DNA of 35,099 nucleotides from a virus, in the IMG/VR virus record IMGVR_UViG_3300035492_000181; one strand, 5' to 3'. Shown one piece after another: positions 6,887-24,324 of this stretch. Every line of letters begins with the position of its first letter. Within the stretch, counting starts at the first letter, position 1. The position numbers were made by a program, and so were the translations under genes. Below the pieces are notes generated by a model. The model was not told the DNA's origin and made no database searches. It saw only the letters and a program-made list of their open reading frames with translations.

Positions 6887-8142
6887 GCCTGCTCAGCCAA
6901 GCCGGCGCGCTGCTCGGTGACGCGGCCAACCACTACCGCGAGGCGACGTCCTACCCCAAGCCGATCTGCCGCGTGGTGGTCAACGGCCGCGACATCACCC
7001 TCGACATCGAGCAGCGCCTGGTCAGCATCGAGCTGACCGACAACCGCGGCATGGAGGCCGACCAGCTCGACATCACCCTCAGCGACCACGACGGGCTGCT
7101 GGCCATCCCGCCCCGGGGCGCCACCGTGCGCCTCTGGCTGGGCTGGAGCGATACCGGCCTGGTCGACAAGGGCAGCTACACCGTGGACGAGACCGAGCAC
7201 AGCGGCGCGCCGGACGTGCTCAGCATCCGCGCCCGCAGCGCGGACCTGCGCGGCGGCCTCAAGGTCAAGCGCGAACGCAGCTGGGACGGTGCCACCCTCG
7301 GCGCCGTCATCGCCTCGATCGCCGCGGCCCATGGCCTGGCACCCGTGGTCAGCCCCATCCTGGCGGCCATCGAGCTGCTGCACCTGGACCAGGCCAACGA
7401 GAGCGACGCCAACCTGCTGAGCCGCCTGGGCCTGCAACACGACGCCATCAGCACGGTGAAGGCCGGCCGCCTGCTGTTCATGCCGGCCGGCAAGAGCACC
7501 ACCGCCAGCGGCCTGAGCCTGCCCCACGTCACCCTCACCCGGGCCGACGGCGACCAGCACCGCTTCCTGCAGGCCGACCGCGACAGCTACACCGGCGTCA
7601 AGGCGTACTACTACGAGATCAACAGCGCGGAGAAGAAGGAGGCCATCGCCGGCGGCGGCGACAACCTCAAGGAGCTGCGCCACAGCTACACCGACCAGGC
7701 CAGCGCCCTGCGCGCCGCCCGCGCCGAGTGGGGCCGCCTGCAGCGCGGTACCGCCACGCTCAGCTACACGCTGGCCAAGGGGCGCCCGGAGTTGACCCCC
7801 GACCAGACCTACAGCCTGCTCGGCATCAAGGCCGAGATCGCGGCCATCGTCTGGCTGGGCGGCAACCTGCACCACAGCTTCACGCCGGACAGCTACACCA
7901 CCAGCCTGGAGCTGGAATCCAAGCTGCCCGACGGCGATGACGTGGATCTGCTGGCCGACCACGACGGCGACTACACCGGCGTGGTTGCCTGGTACCGCGA
8001 CGAGAAAACAGGCGAGCAGAAGAAACTCACCGCCGGCGATCAGACCAAGCCCAAGCGCCTGACGAACCTCTACGCGAGCAAGGCCAATGCCCAGCGGGCG
8101 GTGGATCGAGAGTTGAAGCGGTTGCAGGAATCGCGGACATAA
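6883..8142 (+). CDS. D: Tail protein / late control protein gpD (GTG start, GTGA overlap with U)
   Basis: 419 aa. The KPICRVVVNGRDITLDIEQRLVSIELTDNRGMEADQLDITLSD motif is typical of gpD. It is the last gene of the tail operon. Confidence 0.9.
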   Translation: MSLLSQAGALLGDAANHYREATSYPKPICRVVVNGRDITLDIEQRLVSIELTDNRGMEADQLDITLSDHDGLLAIPPRGATVRLWLGWSDTGLVDKGSYTVDETEHSGAPDVLSIRARSADLRGGLKVKRERSWDGATLGAVIASIAAAHGLAPVVSPILAAIELLHLDQANESDANLLSRLGLQHDAISTVKAGRLLFMPAGKSTTASGLSLPHVTLTRADGDQHRFLQADRDSYTGVKAYYYEINSAEKKEAIAGGGDNLKELRHSYTDQASALRAARAEWGRLQRGTATLSYTLAKGRPELTPDQTYSLLGIKAEIAAIVWLGGNLHHSFTPDSYTTSLELESKLPDGDDVDLLADHDGDYTGVVAWYRDEKTGEQKKLTAGDQTKPKRLTNLYASKANAQRAVDRELKRLQESRT

Positions 8143-8143
8143 A

Positions 8144-8166
8144 AAGGGCGCCACTTGGGCGCCCTT
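8144..8166. terminator. Bidirectional stem-loop terminator between gene D and the minus-strand cargo operon
   Basis: AAGGGCGCC-ACTTG-GGCGCCCTT, a perfect 9-bp stem. The A-run at 8141-8145 supplies a U-tract for minus-strand transcripts. Confidence 0.7.
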
Positions 8167-8183
8167 ACGGTTTGAGATAATTG

Positions 8184-9020
8184 TTAGTGCAGCCTTTGAA
8201 TGCCTGCGGCTTCTTCCATGCGCTGAATGTAATCCACCTTGTCCTTCTGGCTGCGCAGGTTGAATATGAAGTCCGACCCCTCGCTCAGAAGATCAATAGC
8301 TTCGGATTTATCTTTTTCATCTGCCGCACTAGCCGAGTAAACCGCATAGCACTTTGTTTCTTTGCCAAGCTCTAGCTTTGCCTTTGCCATAACAAACGAC
8401 TTGAGCCCGGCTTCTTTGAACTTAACCGACGCATCACGCGCACCAAGATCGATTGTTTCAGTGATGTGGTAAACACCGTTCTTTAATGCGAAGTCAGCGC
8501 GCAAGCTGGACTTCTCGGAGATCGGGAACTTCTCGACGATACGGTGGTTGAAAATATCGTCTACAGAGTCACTGAACAGGTCGTGCTGGCGGAAGATGCT
8601 GCGTAGGTTAGTAATTATGCGTGCGCCGCGCTCTCTGGTGATGACCGGGCGAGGCGGGATCACCAACTCATTCATCAATAGGCTGATTTTTAAGTTCGCT
8701 TCTTCTCTAGTTGCCGCACTGAAACAACCCAAAGTGCTTAACTGATAAGAATCAGGCAATATTAATTTTAGAAATTCAAATCTACTTTCTATTTCTTGGC
8801 TCTCCGGCACGCTTTTACTGAATATCTTTTGCAGCATGGACTCGATATTCTTCAAATCGTTTCCGGAAATTGCACCATCTACGGCGCGAATCTTTCTAAT
8901 AGATTCGCATAGATTTACGACAATGGAGTCAGGCATAAACGCAACCAGACCAATATTAATGGTCTCATTGCGCTTACGGTCGGGCGTGAATTGTATAAGG
9001 CTGTATTTAATAATATTCAT
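8184..9020 (-). CDS. DUF3037-like protein with an unassigned C-terminal half
   Basis: ATG at 9020-9018 overlaps the upstream stop (TGATG). The N-terminus YSLIQFTPDRKRNETINIGLVAF resembles the DUF3037 signature. The gene is clearly AT-rich relative to the phage backbone. Confidence 0.65.
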   Translation of the reverse strand: MNIIKYSLIQFTPDRKRNETINIGLVAFMPDSIVVNLCESIRKIRAVDGAISGNDLKNIESMLQKIFSKSVPESQEIESRFEFLKLILPDSYQLSTLGCFSAATREEANLKISLLMNELVIPPRPVITRERGARIITNLRSIFRQHDLFSDSVDDIFNHRIVEKFPISEKSSLRADFALKNGVYHITETIDLGARDASVKFKEAGLKSFVMAKAKLELGKETKCYAVYSASAADEKDKSEAIDLLSEGSDFIFNLRSQKDKVDYIQRMEEAAGIQRLH

Positions 9021-9760
9021 CACTTAAGCGCCCCCTTGATCGTCTCGCAGCGGATGGCCCGTGCATCACTCTTCCACCAGGCCACTGCTGTCGCCACATC
9101 AACACCGTGCTGCCACTCTCCCGGCATGGCGCCTACCGGACCGTCGATCCAGTCAGCTGGCAAGCCCTGAATCGCATTGAGCACCTTCTCTGCTGAAGCA
9201 AGATCGAAGCCATACAGTGTATCCAGAAACGTTCTCACCTGCCTTGTTTTGCTTTCAGGCGTGAGATACAGATCAAGCGCTGCCCCGTGAGCCAACCAGG
9301 CGAGGCTGTAATCGAAAGCCAGCATCACTACGCCCTCCAGGCTTGTCCTGAACAGCAGGTTTTTAAGATGCCTGTCGCTGTTGTTCACAAACATATCGAA
9401 AGCGTAGATGGCTGAAAGCCGCTCGCGCAGGTTAAGAATGCGCTTGTCCATTTCTCCGGACGCCAGTTCCATCACGCATTGGTCAGCATCCAGCGTTCCG
9501 CCCTCGATCCTTGATCCGAACCACATCCGACCATCCAGCCCGTGCAAAATTTCCATCGGTGGAGTGTGGATCCGGCAGGTGTTGGAAAGATGACCGCACA
9601 ACCACTCGGTAGCCGGCACGAACTCCGCACCAGGAGCGACCTGCTTGAAGGCATAGTCGAGGCCATCGTCACACTTACAGAAACCGCCCGCGTGGAACGT
9701 CCCGGCTTTCTGCGGGTAGACGTTCTCGACGTTCAGCTTGACCAGGTTCTGTTGAATCAA
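9020..9760 (-). CDS. Short HipA-like serine/threonine kinase (core kinase domain only; TTG start inferred)
   Basis: YAFKQ lysine, catalytic loop FVNNSDRHLKN and LAFDYS Mg-binding Asp. GGGAG lies 9 nt upstream of TTG 9760, and there is no in-frame ATG until residue 69. Confidence 0.7.
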   Translation of the reverse strand: MIQQNLVKLNVENVYPQKAGTFHAGGFCKCDDGLDYAFKQVAPGAEFVPATEWLCGHLSNTCRIHTPPMEILHGLDGRMWFGSRIEGGTLDADQCVMELASGEMDKRILNLRERLSAIYAFDMFVNNSDRHLKNLLFRTSLEGVVMLAFDYSLAWLAHGAALDLYLTPESKTRQVRTFLDTLYGFDLASAEKVLNAIQGLPADWIDGPVGAMPGEWQHGVDVATAVAWWKSDARAIRCETIKGALK

Positions 9761-9814
9761 GGGGTACTGCTCCCTGCTCTGCTCCGGCGACTTCTTACGC
9801 GATCAGCATTTCCA

Positions 9815-10459
9815 TCATCCGAACAACGCGCGCTGCCAGTGGTCTTCGCCGACGATTGCGATAGGCGCACCGGCCTCCCGCAGCTCGACGGCCTTCATGA
9901 TCTTGGTGCCGTAGGTGGCGTGCCGCCATTGGTCGTTGCCAACACTGCCAACGACCAGGTAATGGATTTTTTTGCTGACGCCACCGCCTATCACACCGCC
10001 GCGCTCGAGGATCAGCTCCTCACACGCCTTGCGCGGGCCATAGGCCATGGTGCCGGTGAATACGAAAGCCTTGTCCTGGAACACCAGCTCAGGGGCGGGA
10101 AGATTGAACGGCAAGTCCGTCGGCGCGGTGAAGGCCTGGGCGGTTTGCTCCGGCTTGCTGACATCAAGCCCGGCGAAGCTGTGCAGTAGATGCATCAGAT
10201 CGGCCGATTCGTCGGCATCTAGCACGCCGTCCTGCAGCATGGCGCTGATGCGCCGGTAGAGCAGGTTGACTACGGGATCCTCAAGGTGGGCCAGGTTGCT
10301 TTCGATCCAGCCCTTGAGGAAGCGCGCCTCGTCGATGTTCACCACGCCATCCGCAACCACGCCGGCGGCGAGGCCCACCAGAGCATCGGCGCTGCGCCGA
10401 TCAATGCGGGCTTCGTTGAAGAAACGGCTGGAGGTGAATTCCAGATGCAGGTCGACCAT
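9815..10459 (-). CDS. TerB-like N-terminal domain fused to a C-terminal BRCT domain
   Basis: ADGVVNIDEARFL and QDGVLDADESADL motifs in the N-terminal half. C-terminal FQDKAFVFTGTMAYGPRKACEELILERGGVIGGGVSKKIHYLVVG resembles the LigA BRCT domain. AAAGGAG RBS before the ATG. Confidence 0.7.
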   Translation of the reverse strand: MVDLHLEFTSSRFFNEARIDRRSADALVGLAAGVVADGVVNIDEARFLKGWIESNLAHLEDPVVNLLYRRISAMLQDGVLDADESADLMHLLHSFAGLDVSKPEQTAQAFTAPTDLPFNLPAPELVFQDKAFVFTGTMAYGPRKACEELILERGGVIGGGVSKKIHYLVVGSVGNDQWRHATYGTKIMKAVELREAGAPIAIVGEDHWQRALFG

Positions 10460-10516
10460 TCAGAGCTCCTTTCAGACCAGGCGGGGTCTGCAGTTCCATT
10501 GAGAGTGGTTGGTGGG

Positions 10517-10864
10517 CTAGGGCTTGTCCGCCAGCGGTGACTTGCCGCTGGCGCTGGCGATAGAGGACGAGAGCAACAGAAAGGCATCCTGCTGTTGCTT
10601 GGGCATGTTCCGGAAGGCTTCAAGCAGCTGGGCTTCATGGTTGTCGAGGCCGGCCGCGGCCTGTTCAACACGCACGCCAGTAACCACATAAAGCACATCG
10701 ACGCCCGTCTGAGCCACAGCAGCTAGGTACCTGCCATCAGGGCTCCCCGCACCTTTTTCGTAGTTGATCTGCGTCGTTTTGCCCACGCCGCCGATCGCAC
10801 CGAGATCGGTTTGGCTGAGTTTCAGGCGCGACCGTTCTTCCTTCAGCCGCTCGCCAATGGTCAT
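10517..10864 (-). CDS. Prophage repressor, XRE/CI-type HTH (functional equivalent of P2 C)
   Basis: MTIGERLKEERSRLKLSQTDLGAIGGVGKTTQINYEKG is a classic HTH_3 motif. GAGG lies 9 nt before ATG 10864. The gene is divergent from the early operon. Confidence 0.8.
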   Translation of the reverse strand: MTIGERLKEERSRLKLSQTDLGAIGGVGKTTQINYEKGAGSPDGRYLAAVAQTGVDVLYVVTGVRVEQAAAGLDNHEAQLLEAFRNMPKQQQDAFLLLSSSIASASGKSPLADKP

Positions 10865-10867
10865 ATT

Positions 10868-10948
10868 TTTGAACCTCAAGCATTGACAGGTTCAAATAAC
10901 TGAACCAATATCCGCTTTACATCACACGAAATCGCACGAATTTGAACT
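10868..10948. promoter_or_regulatory. Immunity switch: candidate early promoter plus operator repeats
   Basis: TTGACA (10883-10888), N17, CAATAT (10906-10911). The inverted repeat GGTTCA-N6-TGAACC (10889-10906) fills the spacer. Extra half-sites TGAACC at 10870 and TGAACT at 10943. Tandem ATC(A/G)CACGAA at 10921-10940. Confidence 0.55.
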
Positions 10949-11212
10949 ATGCCGAACGGATACCCCAGCGAGCAAGCGCGCAACGCTGCGCGTGAACGCC
11001 TCAGCAAGCTCGGCCTGACCGCCAAGGAATGGGCCGAACAGAACGACATCAGCCCGTCCACGGTTTACGCCGTGCTCAACGGGCAGAAGAAGTGCCTGCG
11101 CGGTGAAGCCCACCGCGCCGCCGTACTGCTCGGCATCAAGGAAGGCGTAGTAGCCGGCGAAGCGCCGCGTTATGGGCGCCGCAAGACTGACTTCGCAGTG
11201 ATTCCAAAGTAA
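10949..11212 (+). CDS. Cro/Ner-like DNA-binding protein, first gene of the early operon (Cox/Apl position)
   Basis: 87 aa with an HTH-like LTAKEWAEQNDISPSTVYAVLNG and an Nlp/Ner-like tail RGEAHRAAVLLGIK. It is divergent from the repressor. Confidence 0.55.
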   Translation: MPNGYPSEQARNAARERLSKLGLTAKEWAEQNDISPSTVYAVLNGQKKCLRGEAHRAAVLLGIKEGVVAGEAPRYGRRKTDFAVIPK

Positions 11213-11715
11213 TGGCAAACCCCAAGGCGAGAAACGAGAAGATGAAGCACCCGATCCTCGACAGCCGGCGCAAGGTGGTCAGCGCCATCATCGCCGCATA
11301 CCCCGGCGGCCGTGACTGCGCCGCGGCCCGCCTGGGCCTGGAAATCAAGAAGTTCGACAACCACGCCTACGAAAGCGCCGGCCACCGCCCGCTGACCGAC
11401 GAGCAGATCCTGCTGCTCGAACAACAGATCGGCACGGCCTACCTGCCCGAGTACATCGCCGCCCAGTACGGCGGTGTGTTCGTCCCGCTGCCAGCCGCCG
11501 AAGAGCTGGACAACATGGAGCTCTACCACCGCGCCGTGGATACCGCGAAGCGCCGCGGCCGGGTTGACCTAATCATCGCCAAGGCCCTGGAGGACGGAGC
11601 GATCGACGAAGGCGAAGCCAACGCCATCCTCGATGCCCACCGCCGCTACGTCTCTGCCCGCCACGCGGAGATAGCGGCAGTCATCGTTCTGCATACCTGC
11701 AACGACAAAAAATAA
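11212..11715 (+). CDS. Phage regulatory protein, CII (CP76)-like
   Basis: TAATG overlap with the upstream gene. Size, position and overall sequence resemble Phage_CP76-type regulators, judged by eye only. Confidence 0.55.
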   Translation: MANPKARNEKMKHPILDSRRKVVSAIIAAYPGGRDCAAARLGLEIKKFDNHAYESAGHRPLTDEQILLLEQQIGTAYLPEYIAAQYGGVFVPLPAAEELDNMELYHRAVDTAKRRGRVDLIIAKALEDGAIDEGEANAILDAHRRYVSARHAEIAAVIVLHTCNDKK

Positions 11716-15461: not shown

Positions 15462-15504
15462 CCGGCGCGGCAACGCCGGTACCAACCCAAGGAGAAGCAC
15501 CATG
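15462..15504 (+). promoter_or_regulatory. Intergenic hairpin (CGGCAA loop) plus conserved RBS cassette, copy 1
   Basis: CCGGCG-CGGCAA-CGCCGG followed by ACCAACCCAAGGAGAAGCACCATG. Confidence 0.6.
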
Positions 15505-15645
15505 CCAATGAACGACAACGACGACCTCTATAGCCCCAGCCGGCGCGAAACCCTGCTCACCCTGCTGGGCAGCGGCGTGACCCTGGCGGTACTGCTCGCG
15601 GCCGGCTACCTCGCCCCCAACCTGCTGGCCCTGGCGGCCCGCTAA
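15502..15645 (+). CDS. Small membrane protein (47 aa)
   Basis: Conserved AAGGAGAAGCACC-ATG context. One hydrophobic helix, LLTLLGSGVTLAVLLAAGYLAPNLLAL. Confidence 0.5.
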   Translation: MPMNDNDDLYSPSRRETLLTLLGSGVTLAVLLAAGYLAPNLLALAAR

Positions 15646-15652
15646 CCCCAAC

Positions 15653-15698
15653 GCCCAGGCGCGGCAACGCCTGGGCCTTACCAAGGAGAAGCACCATG
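15653..15698 (+). promoter_or_regulatory. Intergenic hairpin (CGGCAA loop) plus conserved RBS cassette, copy 2
   Basis: GCCCAGGCG-CGGCAA-CGCCTGGGC followed by CTTACCAAGGAGAAGCACCATG. Confidence 0.6.
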
Positions 15699-15968
15699 CA
15701 ACTGAACGTAGAACGCGGAGCCCCGATGACCGGCAAGACCATCCGCCTGCGGCAGAAAGCCCGCGAGGCCGGGCAGGGCGAGCACCAGATCATCCACGGC
15801 AACGCCTACGACCTTGCCGACCTGGAGCTGCTCGTGCGCCACCGCATCGGCCGCGGCGCCAGGGTCATCTGCATCGACGAGTGCAGCGAGGAGCAGATCG
15901 ATCGCCTGACAGCCCTGCAGCGGCGGCTGCCGTCCGAACTGACCATCCACGCCGTTGTGGCGAACTGA
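15696..15968 (+). CDS. 90-aa protein with Walker A-like and Walker B-like motifs (mini P-loop)
   Basis: GAPMTGKT (GxxxxGKT) and VICIDEC (hhhhDE) in a 90-aa ORF with the conserved RBS cassette. Confidence 0.55.
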   Translation: MQLNVERGAPMTGKTIRLRQKAREAGQGEHQIIHGNAYDLADLELLVRHRIGRGARVICIDECSEEQIDRLTALQRRLPSELTIHAVVAN

Positions 15969-15979
15969 GGAGCAGCACC

Positions 15980-16369
15980 ATGAAAACGAGCGAAAAGCTT
16001 CGAGACCTCGACCTGCTGTTCACCTTCGAGGATCTGGCCAAGGAGAAGGGCTGGCCGGTCGAGCGCAACGACCAGGACAACGCATTTGCTGATGCCCTGA
16101 CCGAGCGCGCATGGGAGGCATTCGAGGCCGCGCATGGCCCGCACGGCCGCAAGGAAGGCCAGCAGCTCTACGCCGAGATCAAGAAGTCCAGCAAGTACGC
16201 CCACCAGGCCGAGTGGTGCCGCACCCAGGGCTACGGCTACCCGTTCAAGGTGCGCATCGTGTTCGACACGGACGGCTACTCGGTGAAAGGAGGCGTCGGC
16301 GGGCAGTACCGCCTGGAGGACGTGAATCTGTACGTCCTCCAGGACGGCAAGAAGATCCGCGTTCGGTAA
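15980..16369 (+). CDS. Hypothetical early protein (129 aa)
   Basis: GAGGAGCAGCACC-ATG context. ORF in the sense direction of the early operon. Confidence 0.55.
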   Translation: MKTSEKLRDLDLLFTFEDLAKEKGWPVERNDQDNAFADALTERAWEAFEAAHGPHGRKEGQQLYAEIKKSSKYAHQAEWCRTQGYGYPFKVRIVFDTDGYSVKGGVGGQYRLEDVNLYVLQDGKKIRVR

Positions 16370-16391
16370 CCCACCCCCCCAGAAACAAGAA

Positions 16392-16447
16392 GGCCCCGGT
16401 GAGCGGCAACTCACCAGGGCCAGACCAACCCAAGGAGAAGCACCATG
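16392..16447 (+). promoter_or_regulatory. Intergenic hairpin (CGGCAA loop) plus conserved RBS cassette, copy 3
   Basis: GGCCCCGGTGAG-CGGCAA-CTCACCAGGGCC (one mismatch) followed by AGACCAACCCAAGGAGAAGCACCATG. Confidence 0.6.
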
Positions 16448-16900
16448 CAAGCACAAACCCCCGAAGTCAGCGCCGAGCAGGCTAACACACCGGTGATTAC
16501 TAGCGCCGTGCAGCTGGCCCAGTTGCTGGAGAACGTGAGAGGCCTACACGACATGAGCGCAGAGCTAATCGCTGCTGACGTGTTCAGCCAATTGGGTGCA
16601 GGCCATCACGGCCTGACCATGGCCGCAGCCGACGTGCTGGCCGAACGCCGCCGCCAGCTCGAAGTAGAAGGCATGAGCACAGCTGGAGACGACAACTACC
16701 GCGCTGCTGAACTGCCGCGAGCGGCTGCTTCCTACGTCCTGAGCGGTGCCAACGACGAAGCACCCGCCATCTGGCCCTGGGCGAGGTCGTGGTGGAAGCC
16801 ACGCGACTGCAGGGCGAACTACGTCCGTGCCGGCGCACTGATCCTTGCCGAGATAGAGCGTTTGGACCGGGCTTCCCAAGCCGAAGGCGGTGCCCAATGA
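16445..16900 (+). CDS. Hypothetical early protein (151 aa)
   Basis: Conserved RBS cassette. Ends ...EGGAQ with an ATGA overlap to the next gene. Confidence 0.55.
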   Translation: MQAQTPEVSAEQANTPVITSAVQLAQLLENVRGLHDMSAELIAADVFSQLGAGHHGLTMAAADVLAERRRQLEVEGMSTAGDDNYRAAELPRAAASYVLSGANDEAPAIWPWARSWWKPRDCRANYVRAGALILAEIERLDRASQAEGGAQ

Positions 16901-17172
16901 CCTGCGCAGGAGCCAAGTTGCGGCAGCGGTACCAGGAGCGCATGCAGCGGGTCGCCATCGGCGCTCAGCTAGAGCGGAAGGGCCGCGTGTGGCTGGTCAT
17001 GAAGCAGCAGCGCACCGAAACCGGCGTCGTGCTCCAGCTGCGCCATGGGCGCCACGACTTCCGCCTTTATGTCCCGGTGACTCTGGACGGCCCAGAGCTG
17101 TGGCACGCCGAGTTCCGCTCGGCAGCACTGCCGCCAACTCAGCGCGAGATGTTCGCCGGAGGTGCCCAATGA
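16897..17172 (+). CDS. Hypothetical early protein (91 aa)
   Basis: ATGA-coupled at both ends. The internal ATG at 16897 was chosen over the listed 16789 start. Confidence 0.45.
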   Translation: MTCAGAKLRQRYQERMQRVAIGAQLERKGRVWLVMKQQRTETGVVLQLRHGRHDFRLYVPVTLDGPELWHAEFRSAALPPTQREMFAGGAQ

Positions 17173-17372
17173 ACAATCGCATCCGCCCGACCATGGCCAG
17201 CCATCGCCTCGACCTGCCCAGCATCTGCGATATCTGCGGCAAGGCCCGCTCCACCCGCAAGCACGCCGCCTGCAGCCGCACCCGCCAGCAACTCAAGCAG
17301 GAAGAGTGGGCCAGCTACATGGGGAACCTCACCGCCAAGAAAGCCCAGGGAGGCCGCCGTTATGCCCGTTGA
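17169..17372 (+). CDS. Hypothetical small protein with a CxxC...HxxC motif (67 aa)
   Basis: GGAGGT lies 7 nt before ATG 17169. ICDICGKARSTRKHAAC suggests a small zinc-binding element. Confidence 0.45.
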   Translation: MNNRIRPTMASHRLDLPSICDICGKARSTRKHAACSRTRQQLKQEEWASYMGNLTAKKAQGGRRYAR

Positions 17373-17607
17373 AATCCGCACCCGTTTCACCACCGGCACC
17401 TACGTGGCCACCGTGCGCGGCGACAAGCGCACCGCCAGCAACACCATGGGCGCCCGCTGGGCTGCTGAGGCTCTCGCTCGCAAGTTGGGCCTCGATCCAA
17501 CCAAGCTCCGCGAGACCCAGCGCGATCTGCTGCGCAACGGGGTGGAGCTGTTTGTTCATCCCGGAAACCCGGTAAAGAAGGAGGAAAGCAATGTCCCTGC
17601 CGTATGA
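17362..17607 (+). CDS. Hypothetical early protein (81 aa)
   Basis: ORF overlaps the upstream gene by 11 nt, in the sense direction. Confidence 0.45.
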   Translation: MPVEIRTRFTTGTYVATVRGDKRTASNTMGARWAAEALARKLGLDPTKLRETQRDLLRNGVELFVHPGNPVKKEESNVPAV

Positions 17608-18025
17608 GAACTCCACCTCCGGAGACAAGGCCTTCGCCGAGATTCAGAAAATTCTGAGCCGCTTTGGCTGCGACAACTACGGAATCATGCAGAAGGCGAA
17701 GGACCAGGTGACGCTGGTTCAGTTCGACTGGAACGGTCGGACGGTTTCGCTACCGGGCCACTGGGGGGGATATGCGACTGCCTGGCTTCGGGAGCATCCG
17801 TATAGCAGCCGCATGCGATGCACCGAGGCGGAGTACCGCCAGCGGGCGATGGACGTGGCTCAGATCGCTGTATGCAGCATGTTGCGTGACTGGGTGAAGG
17901 CCCAGGTCACCGCTGTGGAGTGCCAGCTGATGTCGTTCGAAGAGGTATTCATGCCGCACATGTTGCTGCCGAGCGGGCAACGCATGGTCGACGCCGCCAG
18001 AAAGTTGCTAGAGCAGCAGCCGTGA
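17591..18025 (+). CDS. Hypothetical early protein (144 aa)
   Basis: GGAGGAAAG RBS before ATG 17591. Somewhat lower GC than its neighbours. Confidence 0.55.
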   Translation: MSLPYENSTSGDKAFAEIQKILSRFGCDNYGIMQKAKDQVTLVQFDWNGRTVSLPGHWGGYATAWLREHPYSSRMRCTEAEYRQRAMDVAQIAVCSMLRDWVKAQVTAVECQLMSFEEVFMPHMLLPSGQRMVDAARKLLEQQP

Positions 18026-18228
18026 GGGCCGGTACCGATTCACGGCAGCTACTCGAATGCGAGGCCAGAACCTGGCTTCGCAAGGGCTACACCACGACAG
18101 AGCGCATCAGCGACCTCACCGCGCTGATCGCCAAACATCGAGGCACCGCCGGCGCAGCAAAGCTGATCGAGGAGATGCGCCGGCAGTGGGCTTGCCGTAG
18201 CGAGTGGCTGGGAGGGCAACATGGCTAA
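18022..18228 (+). CDS. Hypothetical small protein (68 aa, GTG start inferred)
   Basis: GTGA overlap with the upstream stop. The frame is open to 18228. Confidence 0.35.
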   Translation: MRAGTDSRQLLECEARTWLRKGYTTTERISDLTALIAKHRGTAGAAKLIEEMRRQWACRSEWLGGQHG

Positions 18229-18306
18229 CGGACCGAGGCGAGAAGGCCGGAGTCGCAATTCTCGGCGATGGCCACCGGCCAGCAGCAGTAAACTGGAGGC
18301 CCGCCC

Positions 18307-18516
18307 ATGAGCGAAGCCTCCAGTGTGTTGACCTTCGACGACCTCAAGCGCATCACCGGCTACGCCCGCCGGGCCGACGTGGAGCGGGCCCTGCACGAGC
18401 AGGGCATCCGTCTGTTCCGAGGCCGCACCGGACCGTGGACCACGGTGGATCTGATCAACCAGGCCGGCGGGCTGAAAGCCAGGAACCAGGAGCAGTACGG
18501 CGTCGATATCCTATGA
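18307..18516 (+). CDS. Excisionase-like / DUF4224-like small DNA-binding protein
   Basis: 69 aa. GGAGG RBS, ATGA overlap with the integrase start, and LTFDDLKRITGYARRADVERALHEQGI is HTH-like. Confidence 0.5.
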   Translation: MSEASSVLTFDDLKRITGYARRADVERALHEQGIRLFRGRTGPWTTVDLINQAGGLKARNQEQYGVDIL

Positions 18517-19655
18517 GGCGAGCAAGGAAGCACAACCCCCACATCCCACCGCACATTGACCAGGCCGCTATCCCAGCGGCCGTTTTCTTTGATCATCGCG
18601 GCAAAGGCAGCTGGTACACCCTGCACCGTGACGAAGCCGGCCGGCAGCGCCGGCAGAACATCGCCAACAGCTCAGCCACGCTTGGCGAGCTGCACCGAAT
18701 CATGGAGGTGCGCAACGGCGTGGACCGGGAGAGCCTCAACTTCCTGTGCCGCGAGTACCACGACAGCGCCAAGTTCAAGCGGCTGGCTCCGAAGACCCAG
18801 GAGAGCTACAGCTGGTCGCGCGACGTCCTGGTCAACATTCCCACCAAGCTCGGCAAGCCCCTCGGCGAGCTGGCCGTGCGCAAGTTCACCCCTGCACTGA
18901 TTCAGCGGCTCATCGATCGGATCGCCGACGAGGGTACGCCGTCCAAGGCTGCCCACGCGCTGCGGTACCTGCGGCTGGTGATGCAGTGGGGCCGCAACCG
19001 CGGCTATCTGGACAGCAACCCGGCGATGGGCATCGAGGCGCCGGTTGAGCGCAAGCAGCGCCGCCTGCCGTCGCTCGACGTGATGCAACGCCTGATCGAC
19101 CGTGCCCGCGAGCTGGGCCAGCTGAAACGCGGGCAGAAGGATGCGGTACCGCCGCACCTGAGCTACGTCATGGAGCTGGCCTACCTCTGCCGGCTGCGCG
19201 GCATCGAGGTCGTCACCCTCACCGACGCCAACGAGCTGCCCGAGGGCATCCTCACCAACCGGCGCAAGGGCAGCCGCGACAACGTGGTCACCTGGACGCC
19301 GCGGCTGCGCGCCGCCTGGGATGCCGCGAAGGCGCGACGCGCCCAGGTGTGGAAAGCCCGGGGCACAGCGGTGCCAGTCCTCCCGGAGAAGCGCTTCATC
19401 ATAACCGCCGACCACGGCGGGCCGCTGGGCAAGTCCGGCCTGGACACCGCCTGGAACCGCTTCATGCGTAACGCGATCGCGGCCGGCGTCATCACGGCGG
19501 AGCAGCGCTTCGGCCTGCACGACCTCAAACGCCGCGGCATCACCGACACCCCTGGTACCCGGGCCGACAAGCAGGAAGCCAGCGGCCACCGCGACGAGTC
19601 CATGCTCGACATCTACGACCTGAGCGTCCCGAAGGTCGCCCCCTCCGCTCTCTGA
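18513..19655 (+). CDS. int: Tyrosine integrase
   Basis: 380 aa. Catalytic motifs LCRLRGIE, HDLKRRGITD and GHRDESMLDIYD (R..H-x-x-R..Y). Adjacent to attP. Confidence 0.9.
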   Translation: MRRARKHNPHIPPHIDQAAIPAAVFFDHRGKGSWYTLHRDEAGRQRRQNIANSSATLGELHRIMEVRNGVDRESLNFLCREYHDSAKFKRLAPKTQESYSWSRDVLVNIPTKLGKPLGELAVRKFTPALIQRLIDRIADEGTPSKAAHALRYLRLVMQWGRNRGYLDSNPAMGIEAPVERKQRRLPSLDVMQRLIDRARELGQLKRGQKDAVPPHLSYVMELAYLCRLRGIEVVTLTDANELPEGILTNRRKGSRDNVVTWTPRLRAAWDAAKARRAQVWKARGTAVPVLPEKRFIITADHGGPLGKSGLDTAWNRFMRNAIAAGVITAEQRFGLHDLKRRGITDTPGTRADKQEASGHRDESMLDIYDLSVPKVAPSAL

Positions 19656-19670
19656 TCCCACCGAAACCTG

Positions 19671-19890
19671 CGTAACAAGCGCGCCGGGCTCCGCAAGGAA
19701 TCCGGCCGCTAGCGCTGCGCTTACGTAACAAGCCCGCACCTAAGTGCCTGACCAGCAACCCGAAAAGGGTTTTCTTGTAATCAGTAGGTCCCGGGTTCGA
19801 CTCCTGGTGCCGGCACCACGAATACCAAGGCTTCCAGCCCTATAAAGGCTGATGCCGACGCAGGCTAGCGTAACAAGCCACGTAACAAGC
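19671..19890 (+). repeat. Four direct copies of CGTAACAAGC flanking the att core (candidate integrase arm-type sites)
   Basis: Exact 10-mers at 19671, 19724, 19869 and 19881, two on each side of the tRNA-like core. Degenerate copies at 19974 and 20051. Confidence 0.5.
19774..19818 (+). other. attP core: 3' 45 nt of a tRNA-Thr(UGU) gene (fragment, not a functional tRNA)
   Basis: CTTGTAA anticodon loop (anticodon TGT), TCAGT, AGGTC variable loop, CCGGG-TTCGACT-CCTGG T-arm, TGCCGGC-A-CCA. The upstream bases cannot pair to complete the anticodon or acceptor stems. Confidence 0.75.
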
Positions 19891-19960
19891 AGAACCGTCG
19901 CGTACATGCGCACGCGCCCCACACGTGAGGCTGTTTTCTCAGGTAGTGGGGGGTCTGCAA

Positions 19961-20241
19961 AAAGAGTAATTTCCGTAACATCGACCGGGAAACGGGCGCA
20001 AAGCCCTGATCTGCAAGGCTTTTCCGGCGATGGCAAAAGGTAACTTCCAAGTAACATAAAGGTAATCTGGTTACTCTTTTATAGGGTGATATCGGGCCTC
20101 AAAAAAAGCCTTCAAAATCAGCACCTTAGAAAAAATTACCTTTTTGATTACCTCTAAGTTACCTCCCTTTGTAATCTCAGAAGCCCCGAATGACGCGGCC
20201 TCCAGGGTCGGTCCACAGCCAGATTGCAGAAATTACTCTTT
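19961..20241. repeat. 13-bp perfect inverted repeat bracketing an AT-rich block with phased TTACCT/AGGTAA repeats
   Basis: AAAGAGTAATTTC at 19961-19973 and GAAATTACTCTTT at 20229-20241. TTACCT at 20136, 20148 and 20159. AGGTAA at 20038 and 20060. Confidence 0.6.
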
Positions 20242-20418
20242 CTGAAAATCGCCCCCCATAAGCCCATAGCCCGGACACAGCATGGGAGCGTCCAGAACCG
20301 CTCTTCCTGCAGGGAAACGCAGGGTTTTGCTCTACCTCATACCCATCCACCAACCCACTGCCTGAGCCGCGTAGAGCTGTCCGCAGGCGCGCAGAAAAAA
20401 CGACACATTTAGCCCGGG

Positions 20419-20439
20419 GGCGTGGCGGGGGGACGAGCG
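20419..20439. other. Candidate cos cohesive-end site
   Basis: GGCGTGGCGGGGGGACGAGCG begins like the P2/186 cohesive ends as I recall them (GGCG[A/T]GGCGGGGAAAGCA). It lies between attP and the portal gene, as in phiCTX. Confidence 0.5.
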
Positions 20440-20530
20440 CGCGCGCCGGGTGCTGCCCGGGGTGGGCTGGACGCTAGTGGCCCACGGCCAGTAGGCTTCG
20501 CCCAACCCATGACCAAGGAGTTGGAAAGGA

Positions 20531-21460
20531 ATGAATCAGCTATTCAAGGTGCTTAGCTGGATCGGTGGCATCGTCCTGGTGCTTTTCGGTCTGCTGTTGG
20601 TGATCGAGATGCCGGTGGCGGCTCTATTATTTGTCGCTGGCGGACTGTTCTTGCTTCCGCCCATTCGCAGCTACGCCTACCGGGTCACCAATAAGGCGCT
20701 AAGCCTTAAGTCCCGCGCCATCACTGTGACGGCCCTGATCTTTGCTGCCTTCATGGCTATTGGGGTCGGTGCGCAGAACGATGCAGAGGCCAAGAAAATC
20801 GAGGAGGCCAAGCAGCTTGCTGCGGCCCAGGCCGAAGAACGGCAGAAGAAAGCCGAGGAGTTCGCGGCCAACCGTGAGTCCATCCTTGGCAAGGCCACAG
20901 CCAGCCTGTCGGCCGGCAATTTCAGCGAAGTCACCAGCCAGTTGACCCAGTACGCCAACGTCCAAGACGCGGACCTGCAGAAGGCCCTGGCCTCAGCCAG
21001 GGCCGGCATTGAATTGCAGAAGAGAAAAGCACAAGAGGCCACCCTCCTCGAGGAGGTCGCCAAGACCGTCGACCAAGCCAAGCTGGCCGAAATTTACGGC
21101 AAACTCGCCACCCTCTTCCCGGACAACAAGAAGTACACCGAACAGCAAAACAGCTATGCCAAGGCAGTCCAGGAAGAAAAGGAAAAGGCGGCAGCAGCGG
21201 AGGCTCGCAAGAAGTTGATCGAGAGCCAGTTCAGCGCCTGGGATGGTTCACACAGAACCTTGGAACGGGCCATCAAGAAGTCAATGAACGATCCGGACAG
21301 CTATGAGCACGACGAGACCAGCTACTGGGATCGAGGCGACCATCTGGTGGTGTTGACCCATTTCCGAGGCCGCAACGCCTTCGGGGGCATGGTGAGAAAC
21401 TCCGTCAAGGCCAAGGTCGACCTCAACGGCAACATTCTAGAAGTGATCGATCAGAACTGA
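20531..21460 (+). CDS. Moron: membrane-anchored coiled-coil protein with a small C-terminal globular domain
   Basis: Three N-terminal hydrophobic helices, about 150 aa of A/K/E/Q-rich region, and a C-terminal FSAWDGSHRTLERAIKKSMNDPDSYEH...RGRNAFGGMV domain. It has its own terminator and lower GC than the backbone. Confidence 0.7.
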   Translation: MNQLFKVLSWIGGIVLVLFGLLLVIEMPVAALLFVAGGLFLLPPIRSYAYRVTNKALSLKSRAITVTALIFAAFMAIGVGAQNDAEAKKIEEAKQLAAAQAEERQKKAEEFAANRESILGKATASLSAGNFSEVTSQLTQYANVQDADLQKALASARAGIELQKRKAQEATLLEEVAKTVDQAKLAEIYGKLATLFPDNKKYTEQQNSYAKAVQEEKEKAAAAEARKKLIESQFSAWDGSHRTLERAIKKSMNDPDSYEHDETSYWDRGDHLVVLTHFRGRNAFGGMVRNSVKAKVDLNGNILEVIDQN

Positions 21461-21470
21461 GCAAGCACCG

Positions 21471-21495
21471 AAAAGCCGCCTGCGGGCGGCTTTTT
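21471..21495. terminator. Bidirectional intrinsic terminator between the moron and the portal gene
   Basis: AAAAGCCGCC-TGCG-GGCGGCTTTTT, with an A-run and a T-run flanking a 7-bp GC stem. Confidence 0.8.
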
Positions 21496-21511
21496 CGATG
21501 GTGCTGATGGA

Positions 21512-22570
21512 CTAGCTGCTGGTCGACGGTAAATCGTAAGGATTGAACCGCACCACCTCCTCCCCCAGCCAGTCGTTGATCTGCCGCAGCCGGGCCTGCT
21601 CCGGCTCCAGCTCGTTGACGGCCCACACCTGCGACGCCTCCCGGATCGACCCGAAGCCCCCCGCGTTCTGCGGTACCACGCCCATGAGCTGAGGCGGGAT
21701 GCGCAGCATCGCCAGCTGGTCGTCGCGGCTGATGTTCTTGATCGCACCGAAGTCATCCTTCGCCGCCACCTCGCTGATGGGGATCAGCTGCAACCCGTCT
21801 TTCTTGCCGTTCGGCGCGTACATGAACAGGTTGCGGAAGTTGCCAGGGCCCTTGCTGTTCTTCATCGCGTTACGTAGGTCGGTGACGAAGTCCTCGTTCT
21901 GCGCCGCGTCGGTCATGTACAGGATGAAGCCGGCATGGCTGCCGTTCTGGTAGTACTTGCGCCGGAACAGCGTGGCGCTCTCGTTGAGCAGCGCGCTCTG
22001 CAGCGCCGGCAGCCACTCCGGCAGCCCGTAGATCTCCTGGTTGATATCCGCCACCCGCAAATGGCAGATGCTGCCGGTCTTGAACTCGTGCTCGTCCTTC
22101 CAGCCGCGCACCTGGTAGTAGGTCGCAAGGTCGGTACCGCGCCGCATGTACTTCGCCAGGCAGGGCTGCAGGCCGATCGCCTGGCGAAGCATGTTGTCGC
22201 GCTTCTCCAGGTACAGGTTGCCCGACCAGCCCCAGTCCATGACGATCTGCTCGAAGGCCGCCCGGCTGAGCAGCCGGTGCGGGATAAAGGTGCGGGCCAG
22301 CGCGTTGCGCTTGAAGATCAGGCCCGACTGTAGATAGACGCTCGCCTTCGACGACTTCGCCAGCCCGTCCAGCGAGACCGGCGGCTCGTACCAGCGGCCA
22401 TTGGCCCAGCATTCCAGGTAGTCCAGGATCTCGCGGCCATCGAGCACTGGCATCGGATCGCCAAAGGTGAAGGCCATCGACTGACCGCCCTCACCATTGG
22501 CCAGCACCTCGCCCTCGCGCACCTGGTCAGTGGTGGCCACCTGCTGGTTACGGTTGCGACGTTTGCTCAT
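21512..22570 (-). CDS. Q: Portal protein
   Basis: The internal ATG at 22570 overlaps the terminase stop (TGATG). 352 aa, P2 gpQ-like in size and position. Confidence 0.9.
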   Translation of the reverse strand: MSKRRNRNQQVATTDQVREGEVLANGEGGQSMAFTFGDPMPVLDGREILDYLECWANGRWYEPPVSLDGLAKSSKASVYLQSGLIFKRNALARTFIPHRLLSRAAFEQIVMDWGWSGNLYLEKRDNMLRQAIGLQPCLAKYMRRGTDLATYYQVRGWKDEHEFKTGSICHLRVADINQEIYGLPEWLPALQSALLNESATLFRRKYYQNGSHAGFILYMTDAAQNEDFVTDLRNAMKNSKGPGNFRNLFMYAPNGKKDGLQLIPISEVAAKDDFGAIKNISRDDQLAMLRIPPQLMGVVPQNAGGFGSIREASQVWAVNELEPEQARLRQINDWLGEEVVRFNPYDLPSTSS

Positions 22571-24324
22571 CAATAAATCTCCATGATGCCGGTGTTGGCC
22601 ACGGTCTGGCCCTCCAGCGGCTCGTTGTGCAGTGCGTGGAAAAGCGCCCAAGCCAGATCGGCGTGGCCCGTGTGTTCATTGCGCCCGGCGGTATAGGTGA
22701 ACTGGCGCCCGCCCGGCGTAACCGTCTTGCGGATGGCCATCAGCGACGACGCCAGGTCAGTCCAGCCGGCGTCGAACTCCAGCCGCCCCTTGCTGATCAC
22801 GTCCCAAGCCTTCATCACCAGGCGCGTCTTCACCTCCGGGCTGTAGGAGAAGGTCTTCAAGCCCGGGAAGAACTGACGCACCAGCTGCGCCACCGCGCTG
22901 CCCAGACCGGTGGTGTCGATGCCGATGTAGGTCACCCAGTAGCGGCGAGTCACCTGGCGGATCGTCTCGGCCTGTGCGTTGAAGTCCATCCCGCGGAACT
23001 GATGCCGCTCCAGGACGCGGAACTTGCCGCCCGGTACCAGCGGTGGCGCCACCACGATCAGCCCGGCGGAATCGCCAGACTCGGCCGGGTCATAGCCCAC
23101 CCATACCTGCCGATCAGCAAACGGCCGCATGGCCATCGGCTGGTAGTCCGTCCACACCGACCAGCTGTCCACCATGCACGGCTGCAGCAGATTGAGCGGG
23201 AAGATGCTCGCCCCGTCGTCGACGAACTGGCACATCAGCAGGTTCTGGAAGGCCGCCGCGTCGTACTCCAGGCGCAGCTCGTCGATATCGAACAGGTCGC
23301 AGCCACGCTCCTCGGCGTCCAGGATGGTGACGATCTGCCGCCAGATCCGGTCCTCGCACAGCCGCCCCTGCTGCAGCATGTCGTGGCTCACATCCAGCTT
23401 GAGGTGCTTGGCCGCCGGCTTGCCCTTGTTGAAGCGCTCGCCCGTCCAGAACGAATAGGCCTCGTGCGCCATCGAGCTGGGCGTCGAGAAATAGGTGCGC
23501 CGGTACTGCTTCTGCATGGCCATGCCGCTGGCCACCTTGTTCAGCTCGTTGAACTTGAACGTCCAGAAGAATTCGTCGAAGTAGAAATTGCCGTGGTAGC
23601 CCTGGGCGGTGCGCGCGTTGGTACCCAGGAAGTGCATCTCGGCGCCGTTCGGCAGAATGATCGGGTCGCCGGTGAGTTCCACCCCGACCGTGTCGCGGGC
23701 GAAGGCCTGGATATACGCCTTGAAGATATGCGCCTGCGCCTTGCTGGCCGACAGGAAGATCTGGTTGCGCCCGGTGGTCAGCGCATCGATCAACGCCTCG
23801 CGGGCGAAGTAGAACGTCGCGCCGATCTGCCGGCTCTTCAGAATGGCCCGAGTGCGCTGGTTACCTGCTCGGTACCAGTCTTTCTGGTAGTCGAAGCACC
23901 CGTCGAGGAACGCCTCGACGAGCTTCTCGACCATCTCCTCTGTGATGTCGTTGCGCTTGGGTTTACGCTTCTCCCCGGCGTTGCGCTTGGCCAGCTCCGG
24001 GTTGAGGTCGGTTTCGGTACCACCGTCCTGATAGCGCTGGATTCGGGCCTGCCGCTCCATTTGCCGGTGGAGCAGGTCGATCTCCTTGTAATCCGAGCCG
24101 CTCTTCGGTTCCTTGAGGATCAGCTGCACCAGGCGGGCCTCGGTTGCCGCCTGGATGCGCTCCAACGGCGTAGCCCGGTCCCACTCGTCCCGGGCCTTCC
24201 AGCTGTGCAGCGTCTTCTCCTTCTCGCCGAGCAGCTCGGCTATCTCGCAGACGCGGTAGCCCTGCCAATACAGGTGCTTGGCGTGGCGGCGGTGATCGGT
24301 AGGGAGTTCGACGATAGCGTTCAT
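22570..24324 (-). CDS. P: Terminase large (ATPase) subunit
   Basis: 584 aa. The N-terminal HLYWQGYRVCEIAELLG HTH is typical of P2 gpP. The gene is divergent from O. Confidence 0.95.
   Translation of the reverse strand: MNAIVELPTDHRRHAKHLYWQGYRVCEIAELLGEKEKTLHSWKARDEWDRATPLERIQAATEARLVQLILKEPKSGSDYKEIDLLHRQMERQARIQRYQDGGTETDLNPELAKRNAGEKRKPKRNDITEEMVEKLVEAFLDGCFDYQKDWYRAGNQRTRAILKSRQIGATFYFAREALIDALTTGRNQIFLSASKAQAHIFKAYIQAFARDTVGVELTGDPIILPNGAEMHFLGTNARTAQGYHGNFYFDEFFWTFKFNELNKVASGMAMQKQYRRTYFSTPSSMAHEAYSFWTGERFNKGKPAAKHLKLDVSHDMLQQGRLCEDRIWRQIVTILDAEERGCDLFDIDELRLEYDAAAFQNLLMCQFVDDGASIFPLNLLQPCMVDSWSVWTDYQPMAMRPFADRQVWVGYDPAESGDSAGLIVVAPPLVPGGKFRVLERHQFRGMDFNAQAETIRQVTRRYWVTYIGIDTTGLGSAVAQLVRQFFPGLKTFSYSPEVKTRLVMKAWDVISKGRLEFDAGWTDLASSLMAIRKTVTPGGRQFTYTAGRNEHTGHADLAWALFHALHNEPLEGQTVANTGIMEIY

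Follow-up and report, generated by a model that had tools for sequence, protein, structure and literature searches.

We analysed the virus genome IMGVR_UViG_3300035492_000181 from the IMG/VR database (35,099 nucleotides, nt; this whole 35.1-kb stretch is hereafter called the window) and focused on two overlapping minus-strand genes, which encode a short HipA-like protein kinase and a partner protein with a DUF3037 domain. According to our analysis, this pair is probably an anti-phage module that is carried by a prophage, consists of a kinase toxin and its antitoxin, and belongs to the HipA-like kinase/DUF3037 class; we estimate the probability of this reading at about 0.7. It is based on an architecture and homology that match those of the validated defence system DS-6, on experiments with homologous pairs, on the strict linkage of the two genes, on their prophage or defence setting, and on their foreign composition.

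Kinase and partner genes co-occur and co-diverge

Many Pseudomonas aeruginosa genomes encode the same partner protein with 100% identity, and in Stutzerimonas stutzeri the identity is 99%. These copies always lie in the same P2-like prophage, in which gpD is followed, on the opposite strand, by the partner, the kinase, a gene for a protein of 214 amino acids (aa) and the repressor, and then by divergent early genes. Remoter partners (67% and 37% identical) occur in unrelated lambdoid-type contexts, with a kinase homologue (51% and 29%, respectively) directly upstream. For comparison, 25 other loci were assembled: 24 from a scan of one genome per species, less one spurious 26-residue match, plus the two loci of the remoter partners. 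All 25, which belong to diverse Gamma- and Betaproteobacteria, have a same-strand kinase homologue immediately upstream of the partner, abutting or overlapping it. The pairwise identities of the kinases and of the partners in the 26 loci are correlated with r = 0.94 (Mantel test, 0 of 2000). These results show strict co-occurrence and co-divergence of the two genes, and the association outside this phage that was expected in a preliminary description of the locus is borne out.

The setting of the pair is recurrent as well. A CI-type repressor with HTH_3 (helix-turn-helix, HTH) and Peptidase_S24 domains lies immediately upstream on the same strand in 11 of the 25 loci, and Cro/YdaS- and YdaT-like genes are other recurring neighbours. 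The gene for the type I restriction protein HsdR directly precedes the pair in four of the 25 loci, with that for HsdS nearby. These four loci (L019, L028 and two more) come from marine or environmental Gammaproteobacteria, and in them the pair sits inside a restriction-modification locus or is attached to one, instead of lying in a prophage. Among isolated phages (approximately 50,000 genomes), no match was obtained by megablast of positions 7900-10950 or by tblastn of the partner; as read from these searches, prophages and metagenomic viral contigs are the only known sources of the pair.

The two open reading frames (ORFs) and their TGATG overlap were read in the sequence at the coordinates given in the preliminary description. 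The kinase stop codon TGA (9022-9020) and the partner start codon ATG (9020-9018) share one nucleotide at the junction AAG TGA TG, implying putative translational coupling of the two genes, and a Shine-Dalgarno-like AAGGGGG is located at 9037-9031, inside the 3'-terminal part of the kinase gene. If translation began instead at a GTG codon at 9023, the partner would have 279 aa; the 278-aa form is the one called in other genomes. The kinase is likewise called as 246 aa elsewhere, and its N-terminal residues are conserved among homologues.

The drop in GC content, previously estimated by hand counting, was confirmed by exact values: 45.5% for the partner (53% at third codon positions, GC3) and 56.4% for the kinase (GC3 68%), against 69.4% for gpD (GC3 94.5%), 65.7% for the primase and 64.7% for the whole window. 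The interpretation of the pair as foreign low-GC cargo in a variable slot is supported; the variation of the slot itself is described below.

The kinase matched the Pfam family HipA_2 (PF20613) with 36 bits (E = 5.8e-9; curated cut-off 27) and phrog_3162 over its full length (E = 4e-45), and its RefSeq/NCBI name is "HipA family kinase." The partner matched DUF3037 (PF11236) with 28.2 bits (E = 2.3e-6; curated cut-off 22.6) and phrog_5137 over its full length (E = 1.9e-62). The initial assignments of both proteins, to a HipA-like kinase and to DUF3037, are thus upheld. HipA_C (PF07804) gave only 22.3 bits with the kinase, under the Pfam cut-off of 30.5; no HipA N-terminal domain was matched in the kinase. 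NCBIfam gave no match for either protein. No HTH gene abuts the pair, as had been noted before, and a repressor-type HTH gene is located two genes upstream.

The codons AAC AAC AGC GAC AGG CAT CTT AAA AAC give the catalytic loop NNSDRHLKN, with D129 encoded by GAC at 9376-9374, and translation count places the motifs Y36-A-F-K39-Q, N134 and LAFD150YS; K39, D129, N134 and D150 therefore stand at the places first assigned to them. In 25 kinase homologues from independent loci, the invariant residues are Y36, E52, F81-G82-S83, D122, N127, D129, R130, N134, D150, W216, W228-W229 and R237, and K39 is kept in at least 90%. Judging from its residues, the kinase carries the full protein-kinase-like catalytic set, and the conservation of these residues implies that it may well be catalytically competent. 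The best solved relatives of the kinase family profile are the Legionella HipT structures 8ezr and 7vkb (E = 6e-5), followed by other atypical kinases. In addition, 22 of the 25 kinases (alignment A4) match the models for PDC-M03A in PADLOC (best E = 1.2e-8), which belong to another HipA-like candidate system; short HipA_2 kinases would accordingly have radiated more widely, with differing partners.

An exhaustive search with the partner yielded 347 clusters (50% identity) at E <= 1e-3, including 252 at E <= 1e-10. Nearly all of the best 150 clusters listed consist of proteins of approximately 270-300 aa, and since the listed matches run from end to end, the two-domain architecture of the partner appears to be the norm of a large family. 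An AlphaFold2 model built from a 40-sequence alignment had a predicted local distance difference test (pLDDT) score of 85. In this model, the N-domain (residues 1-120) consists of three strands, three helices, two strands and one helix, and the elements of the C-domain follow in the order alpha-beta-beta-beta-alpha-beta-alpha-beta-alpha. The core of the C-domain (residues 161-230) is the most conserved region of the partner; A175, D176, F177, K180, H185, D191, K200, E203 and K207 are invariant in the 40 sequences, which are approximately 32% identical to the window protein.

A Foldseek search of the partner model against the Protein Data Bank (PDB) gave no significant match (all E >= 0.01); the recurring weak matches were the PD-(D/E)xK proteins PspGI, BstEII, Can2/Cdn1 and MUS81/ERCC4. 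Against viral models, two full-length relatives were found (E = 3e-10 and 9e-9), and the next matches were DUF2726, "endonuclease-like," DUF1828-family and PD-(D/E)XK proteins. The invariant D176 lies on the second strand of the C-domain, and the third strand reads E188-T-I, without a canonical (D/E)xK triplet. Based on the model, the C-terminal ~150 residues most likely adopt a restriction-endonuclease-like fold that lacks this triplet. When PDB sequences were searched with a partner profile, the only matches were marginal ones to NleH kinases (E = 0.002, approximately 60 residues), which we took as chance.

Relationship to DS-6/HipAD and other HipA-based systems

DS-6 was validated in Escherichia coli by DefensePredictor and consists of the HipA-related kinase DS-6A and the DUF3037 protein DS-6B (PMC13092281). 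Defence was lost upon the D139A substitution in DS-6A; an AlphaFold3 model of the A-B complex had an interface predicted template modelling (ipTM) score of 0.76-0.79, with weaker contacts to DNA; and the C-terminus of DS-6B showed a weak match to DUF1829 of the PDDEXK clan (78% HHpred probability) (PMC13092281). According to the same paper, Brenes and Laub (2025, Cell Host Microbe 33:1004) discovered the system independently and gave it the new name HipAD, in a study which, by its title as cited there, deals with E. coli prophage-encoded defence systems acting on temperate phages (PMC13092281). The preprint of Payne et al. mentions neither HipA nor PDC-M66.

A homologous pair is also found in the Retron-Sda1 operon, which is composed of an HTH gene, HipA, DUF3037, a non-coding RNA (ncRNA) and a reverse transcriptase (RT) (PMC12548924). 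Its defence against phage Bas51 required the kinase, the HTH gene, the ncRNA and the RT being dispensable, and deletion of the DUF3037 gene was toxic (PMC12548924). The authors equated the pair with the PADLOC candidate PDC-M66, made up of a HipA-like protein (PDC-M66A) and a DUF3037 protein (PDC-M66B), and noted a strong association between DUF3037 and HipA (PMC12548924). The order of HTH gene, HipA-like kinase and DUF3037 gene is the same as at the window pair, and many other pair loci also have an upstream HTH regulator; the Retron-Sda1 pair, which is a stand-alone defence, differs in being embedded in a type III retron and in another host.

These experiments on homologous pairs match the suggestion, made before any database search, that the window pair is a kinase-toxin module for abortive infection or exclusion in which the DUF3037 protein has the part of antitoxin or sensor (PMC13092281; PMC12548924). 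The accompanying view that it corresponds to no named system cannot be maintained: the combination of a HipA-like protein and DUF3037 is PDC-M66, validated as DS-6/HipAD, even though the PDC-M66A and PDC-M66B models match the window proteins weakly. The class is already known and named, and the window pair is not a new kind of system.

The likeness to DS-6 concerns both the anatomy and the proteins. In both pairs the kinase gene comes first and overlaps the gene of the DUF3037 partner, no HipB is present, and the sizes are close (249 + 275 aa in DS-6 versus 246 + 278 aa in the window); according to the supplement, the overlap in DS-6 is of 4 nt (PMC13092281). DS-6A and the window kinase are homologous and collinear (E = 7e-8), and the CKCDDG and xNxDR motifs are common to both. 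Compared by hhalign with DS-6B as a single sequence, the partner profile could be aligned over just 28 residues; a DS-6B family profile was therefore built, and with it the two partner families were aligned with 91% probability (E = 9.5e-7), over residues 1-144 only. In an AlphaFold2 model of the DS-6B family (pLDDT 90.6), the secondary-structure elements follow one another in the same order as in the window partner over the full length. The weak fold matches of this model are the PD-(D/E)xK proteins BstEII, AF1548, MUS81, XisH, cap-snatching endonucleases, SduA and Card1, of which BstEII and MUS81 are also weak matches of the window-partner model. Pfam DUF1829 was matched by none of the 40 members of the partner family.

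With the PADLOC models, PDC-M66B was matched by 40 of 40 members of the partner family and PDC-M66A by 22 of 25 kinases. DS-6A and DS-6B themselves scored 53 and 57 bits, DS-6B nearly end to end. Two members of the window family, P0118 and P0082, align to approximately 85% of the PDC-M66B model, with a score mostly from the N-domain, and these alignments are suggestive of a bridge between the window family and DS-6B. Evidently, the PDC-M66 models were not built on the window clade, which an automated PADLOC call may miss. Based on these comparisons, we conclude that the window pair is a member of the HipA-like kinase/DUF3037 class and a distant sister clade of DS-6/HipAD, whose hosts belong to a different clade from that of the window pair.

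Several results weigh against the assignment of a DS-6-like defence role. The kinases of the two systems are only 22% identical, and the C-domains of the partners are not significantly similar in sequence according to hhalign, whether run in local or in global mode (probability 0.4%). Their invariant residues also differ, being ADF-LKNG-YH-E-ID...K-KE...K in the window clade and P...AIKPLAF-Q...H...W in the DS-6B family. In raw hmmscan searches, the window kinase had a weak, partial match to PDC-M66A (17.2 bits, E = 5.7e-4, 42 of 270 model positions), and the window partner a weak match to PDC-M66B that was confined to the N-terminus (26.8 bits, E = 7.8e-7, 80 of 281 positions). Finally, a sigma-70 promoter scan of 7900-11300 returned no site, which leaves gene spacing as the argument for the co-transcription with the repressor that is proposed below.

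The divergence of the C-domain may also have a functional meaning. There is a small chance that the window clade, which comprises at least 347 clusters at 50% identity, is a functionally distinct variant of HipAD in which this domain acts as a nuclease or as a sensor of nucleic acids or another ligand, because the domain is the best conserved part of the partner and carries D176, K180, H185, D191, K200, E203 and K207, which the DS-6B family lacks.

Two better-known HipA systems were also compared with the window pair. The best solved relative of the window kinase is HipT of Legionella, and both are shortened kinases of the HipA family. In HipBST, the kinase HipT (approximately 310-335 aa) is neutralised by a protein other than HipB, the small HipS, which corresponds to the N-subdomain missing from the kinase, and the HTH protein HipB is a part of the system. 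DUF3037 is absent from HipBST, whereas genes for HipS and HipB are absent at the window pair, which for this reason is not a HipBST system. The idea that the partner imitates the N-subdomain of HipA in the manner of HipS was also considered and rejected, as neither the PDB profile search nor the fold search found similarity to HipS or HipA. Canonical HipA is a protein of approximately 440 aa with N-terminal domains, which in E. coli arrests growth by phosphorylation of GltX, and HipB is encoded upstream as an HTH antitoxin and autorepressor. The window kinase shares the superfamily and the catalytic motifs with HipA; it differs in its short length, its HipA_C score below the cut-off, its position as the first gene and a partner without HTH. 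With no HipA N-terminal domains, no HipB, and genes for a BRCT-domain protein and DUF3037 on its flanks, it does not belong to canonical HipBA.

Predicted mode of action and competing explanations

We propose that the window kinase is a minimal Ser/Thr kinase of the HipA superfamily that would act as the effector, and that the partner most likely binds it, holds it inactive and serves as a regulatory or sensing subunit. In a lysogen, the pair would probably be co-transcribed with the immunity repressor, as part of a lysogenic unit headed by the repressor and continued by the BRCT gene, the kinase, the partner and a terminator; this is suggested by gaps of 54-57 nt between the upstream genes, from the lack of a strong internal terminator and from the single strong terminator after the partner. 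The latter is a terminator-like hairpin with a 9-bp stem (seven G-C pairs) followed by a T run, located 18 nt past the partner TAA, and it marks the end of the transcription unit. During infection by another phage, the hold of the partner would be lost and the kinase released or activated. The freed kinase would then act on an essential target, which by analogy with HipA and HipT could be a translation factor, for example an aminoacyl-tRNA synthetase, and the phosphorylation of this target would stop growth and abort the infection. In this view, the pair of the window would be expected to be toxic through its kinase, neutralised by its partner and protective in Pseudomonas.

A part of this evidence would also fit a plain addiction module that stabilises the prophage or its slot by post-segregational killing and has no role in defence. 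The anatomy is that of a toxin-antitoxin pair with translational coupling, the two genes are always inherited as a unit and reside on a mobile element, and the deletion of the partner was toxic in a homologous operon (PMC12548924). However, two independent homologous pairs gave kinase-dependent protection against phages when cloned off their elements, the pair is found repeatedly beside genes of type I restriction, and its slot holds known defence systems in other phages. We therefore consider pure addiction unlikely, although addiction and defence are compatible and do not exclude each other.

The toxicity of the partner deletion to uninfected cells of the homologous operon, which suggests that the free kinase hits a target of the host, also speaks against another possibility, namely that the kinase is non-abortive and phosphorylates a protein of the infecting phage, or a factor of the host on which this phage depends, so that the cell survives, or that it tunes the lysis-lysogeny switch of its own phage. 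The second variant would explain why the pair is located immediately downstream of an immunity repressor in at least 12 of the 26 loci, in both P2-like and lambdoid prophages, and the title of the HipAD study, with its prophage systems against temperate phages, would be in line with a non-abortive action. On the other hand, the pair is also found outside prophages, where genes of type I restriction accompany it, and Retron-Sda1 did not need its adjacent HTH gene for defence (PMC12548924). Altogether, such an action seems improbable.

It is slightly less probable still that the roles are reversed or shared, with the C-domain of the partner as an active nuclease, alone or as a second effector, and the kinase as its regulator. 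The strong conservation of the C-domain core with its invariant charged residues and the fold matches to PD-(D/E)xK nucleases would be expected in this case, but these matches are all weak, the third strand lacks the canonical triplet, and the DS-6B family does not have these acidic invariants. Furthermore, homologues lose defence when the kinase is dead or deleted, and the removal of DUF3037 is toxic rather than harmless.

The least probable explanation, a three-gene unit (8184-10459) in which the BRCT protein is an obligatory sensor or adaptor, would account for the adjacent same-strand position of this gene across a 54-nt gap, its presence in every copy of the prophage lineage from P. aeruginosa and Stutzerimonas and its partial PDC-S48 match, but is hard to reconcile with the absence of a BRCT homologue from all 25 other pair-bearing loci, with a locus that has the pair without the BRCT gene (L041) and two that have a 70% identical BRCT gene without the pair (L084 and L111), and with the fact that DS-6 works as two genes.

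The gpD-repressor slot and other features of the window

The coordinates of the pair and of the neighbouring features are given in Table 1.

Table 1. Features of the kinase/DUF3037 locus and of its surroundings in the window.
Feature	Position	Strand	Remarks
HipA-like (HipA_2) Ser/Thr kinase, short	9020..9760	-	246 aa, TTG start; predicted toxin/effector
Kinase catalytic residues	K39 (9646-9644), E52 (9607-9605), D129 (9376-9374), N134 (9361-9359), D150 (9313-9311)		
Ribosome-binding site AGGGAG	9770..9775	-	9 nt 5' of kinase TTG (9760); read in sequence
Stop/start overlap TGATG, kinase/partner	9018..9022	-	Read in sequence
DUF3037 partner	8184..9020	-	278 aa; predicted antitoxin/regulator
Partner DUF3037 N-domain	8646-9020 (~residues 1-125)	-	Pfam
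Partner disordered linker	Residues 124-132		AlphaFold2 model
Partner C-domain	8187-8618 (~residues 135-278)	-	Predicted restriction-endonuclease-like fold
Intrinsic-terminator-like hairpin	8144..8166	-	Terminator scan and sequence; between convergent partner and gpD
BRCT-domain protein	9815..10459	-	214 aa; context, outside the conserved unit; directly upstream of kinase
Phage immunity repressor (HTH_3, DicA/RstR-like)	10517-10879	-	Two genes upstream of kinase; context
Cox/Cro-like HTH gene	10949-11212	+	Divergent from repressor

The pair occupies a slot between gpD and the repressor (8143-10516 in the window). To survey this slot, relatives of gpD were collected from viral contigs (loci L038-L117), and the 63 loci with an anchor gene downstream of gpD were compared. 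The gap between gpD and the repressor or early genes varies from 478 to 6819 nt, and its length differs even where the gpD proteins of two phages are 97-98% identical. Exchange of the immunity repressor is also frequent among these relatives (approximately 56% identity). The pair is present in a minority of the 63 loci; according to the PADLOC models, other cargo includes PD-Lambda-5 A and B, type II methyltransferases, PDC-M38A and PDC-S42, along with many unannotated ORFs. The slot is a genuine hotspot of defence cargo in this lineage of Pseudomonas P2-like phages. The preliminary description had linked it to the hotspots known from P2-like phages: the slot is indeed hypervariable and holds known systems, but it is not among the described hotspots of P2 phages in enterobacteria, which are located between gpA and gpQ, at a tail-gene site and at sites near int (PMC13586616).

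Two variations of the region between partner and gpD were observed. In one P. aeruginosa genome, an IS66-family insertion with TnpB and a DDE transposase lies there, at or beside the terminator (L008, 8978-10918). The Stutzerimonas prophage copies have at this place an additional 76-aa ORF, which the window does not contain (L011-L013, 6901-7131).

The protein encoded directly upstream of the kinase matched Pfam BRCT with 22.8 bits (cut-off 21.3), PDC-S48 of PADLOC partially (E = 7.8e-8) and phrog_3989 (E = 1.7e-75). It resembles the C-terminus of LigA and is misnamed "NAD-dependent DNA ligase" in some sources. Given the distribution of the pair and the BRCT gene described above (none of the 25 other loci, and L041, L084 and L111), the gene was rejected as a third component, and the earlier extension of the module to 10459 is not upheld; it is an independent cargo that moves separately within the slot. 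It may by itself be a candidate for a single-gene defence.

The repressor matched DicA (E = 1.6e-10) and RstR (E = 1e-6) in NCBIfam and the repressor families phrog_8 and phrog_4; with the hipB-type model TIGR03070, it scored 24 bits against a cut-off of 71.65. The order of genes around it is conserved in the P. aeruginosa and Stutzerimonas prophages.

The window as a whole, with its tail, immunity, early, primase, integrase and portal genes, has the appearance of a P2-like genome that is complete and circularly permuted, and not that of a prophage flanked by host DNA. No tRNA was detected in it by ARAGORN, which therefore gave no clue to the attachment (att) site. A patch of lower GC content (55-59%) at 19740-21500, flanked by the integrase gene (18204-19655) and the minus-strand portal gene (21512-22651), is at the position of the classical gpA-gpQ defence hotspot of P2. 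A plus-strand ORF in this region (20531-21460, 309 aa) encodes a hydrophobic segment at the N-terminus and a long stretch rich in Ala, Lys and Glu; it has no Pfam match. A run of small plus-strand ORFs extends from the primase to the integrase (15500-18200); five of these (90-160 aa, 15696-18025) were scanned, with no meaningful Pfam match.

Overall, our analysis extends the recently validated class of HipA-like kinase/DUF3037 systems to a large, sequence-distant clade that is barely detected by the current PADLOC models, is common in prophages of P. aeruginosa and Stutzerimonas, and is widespread in Gamma- and Betaproteobacteria. The lineage-specific cargo hotspot between gpD and the repressor in Pseudomonas P2-like phages and the C-domain of the partner, with its own invariant charged motif, are new. 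The invariant residues of the kinase, the conserved C-domain of the partner and the recurrent place of the pair downstream of prophage repressors provide comparative handles on the mechanism. If the clade were a functionally distinct variant, this would imply a dual effector composed of a kinase and a nuclease, or a trigger different from that of HipAD.

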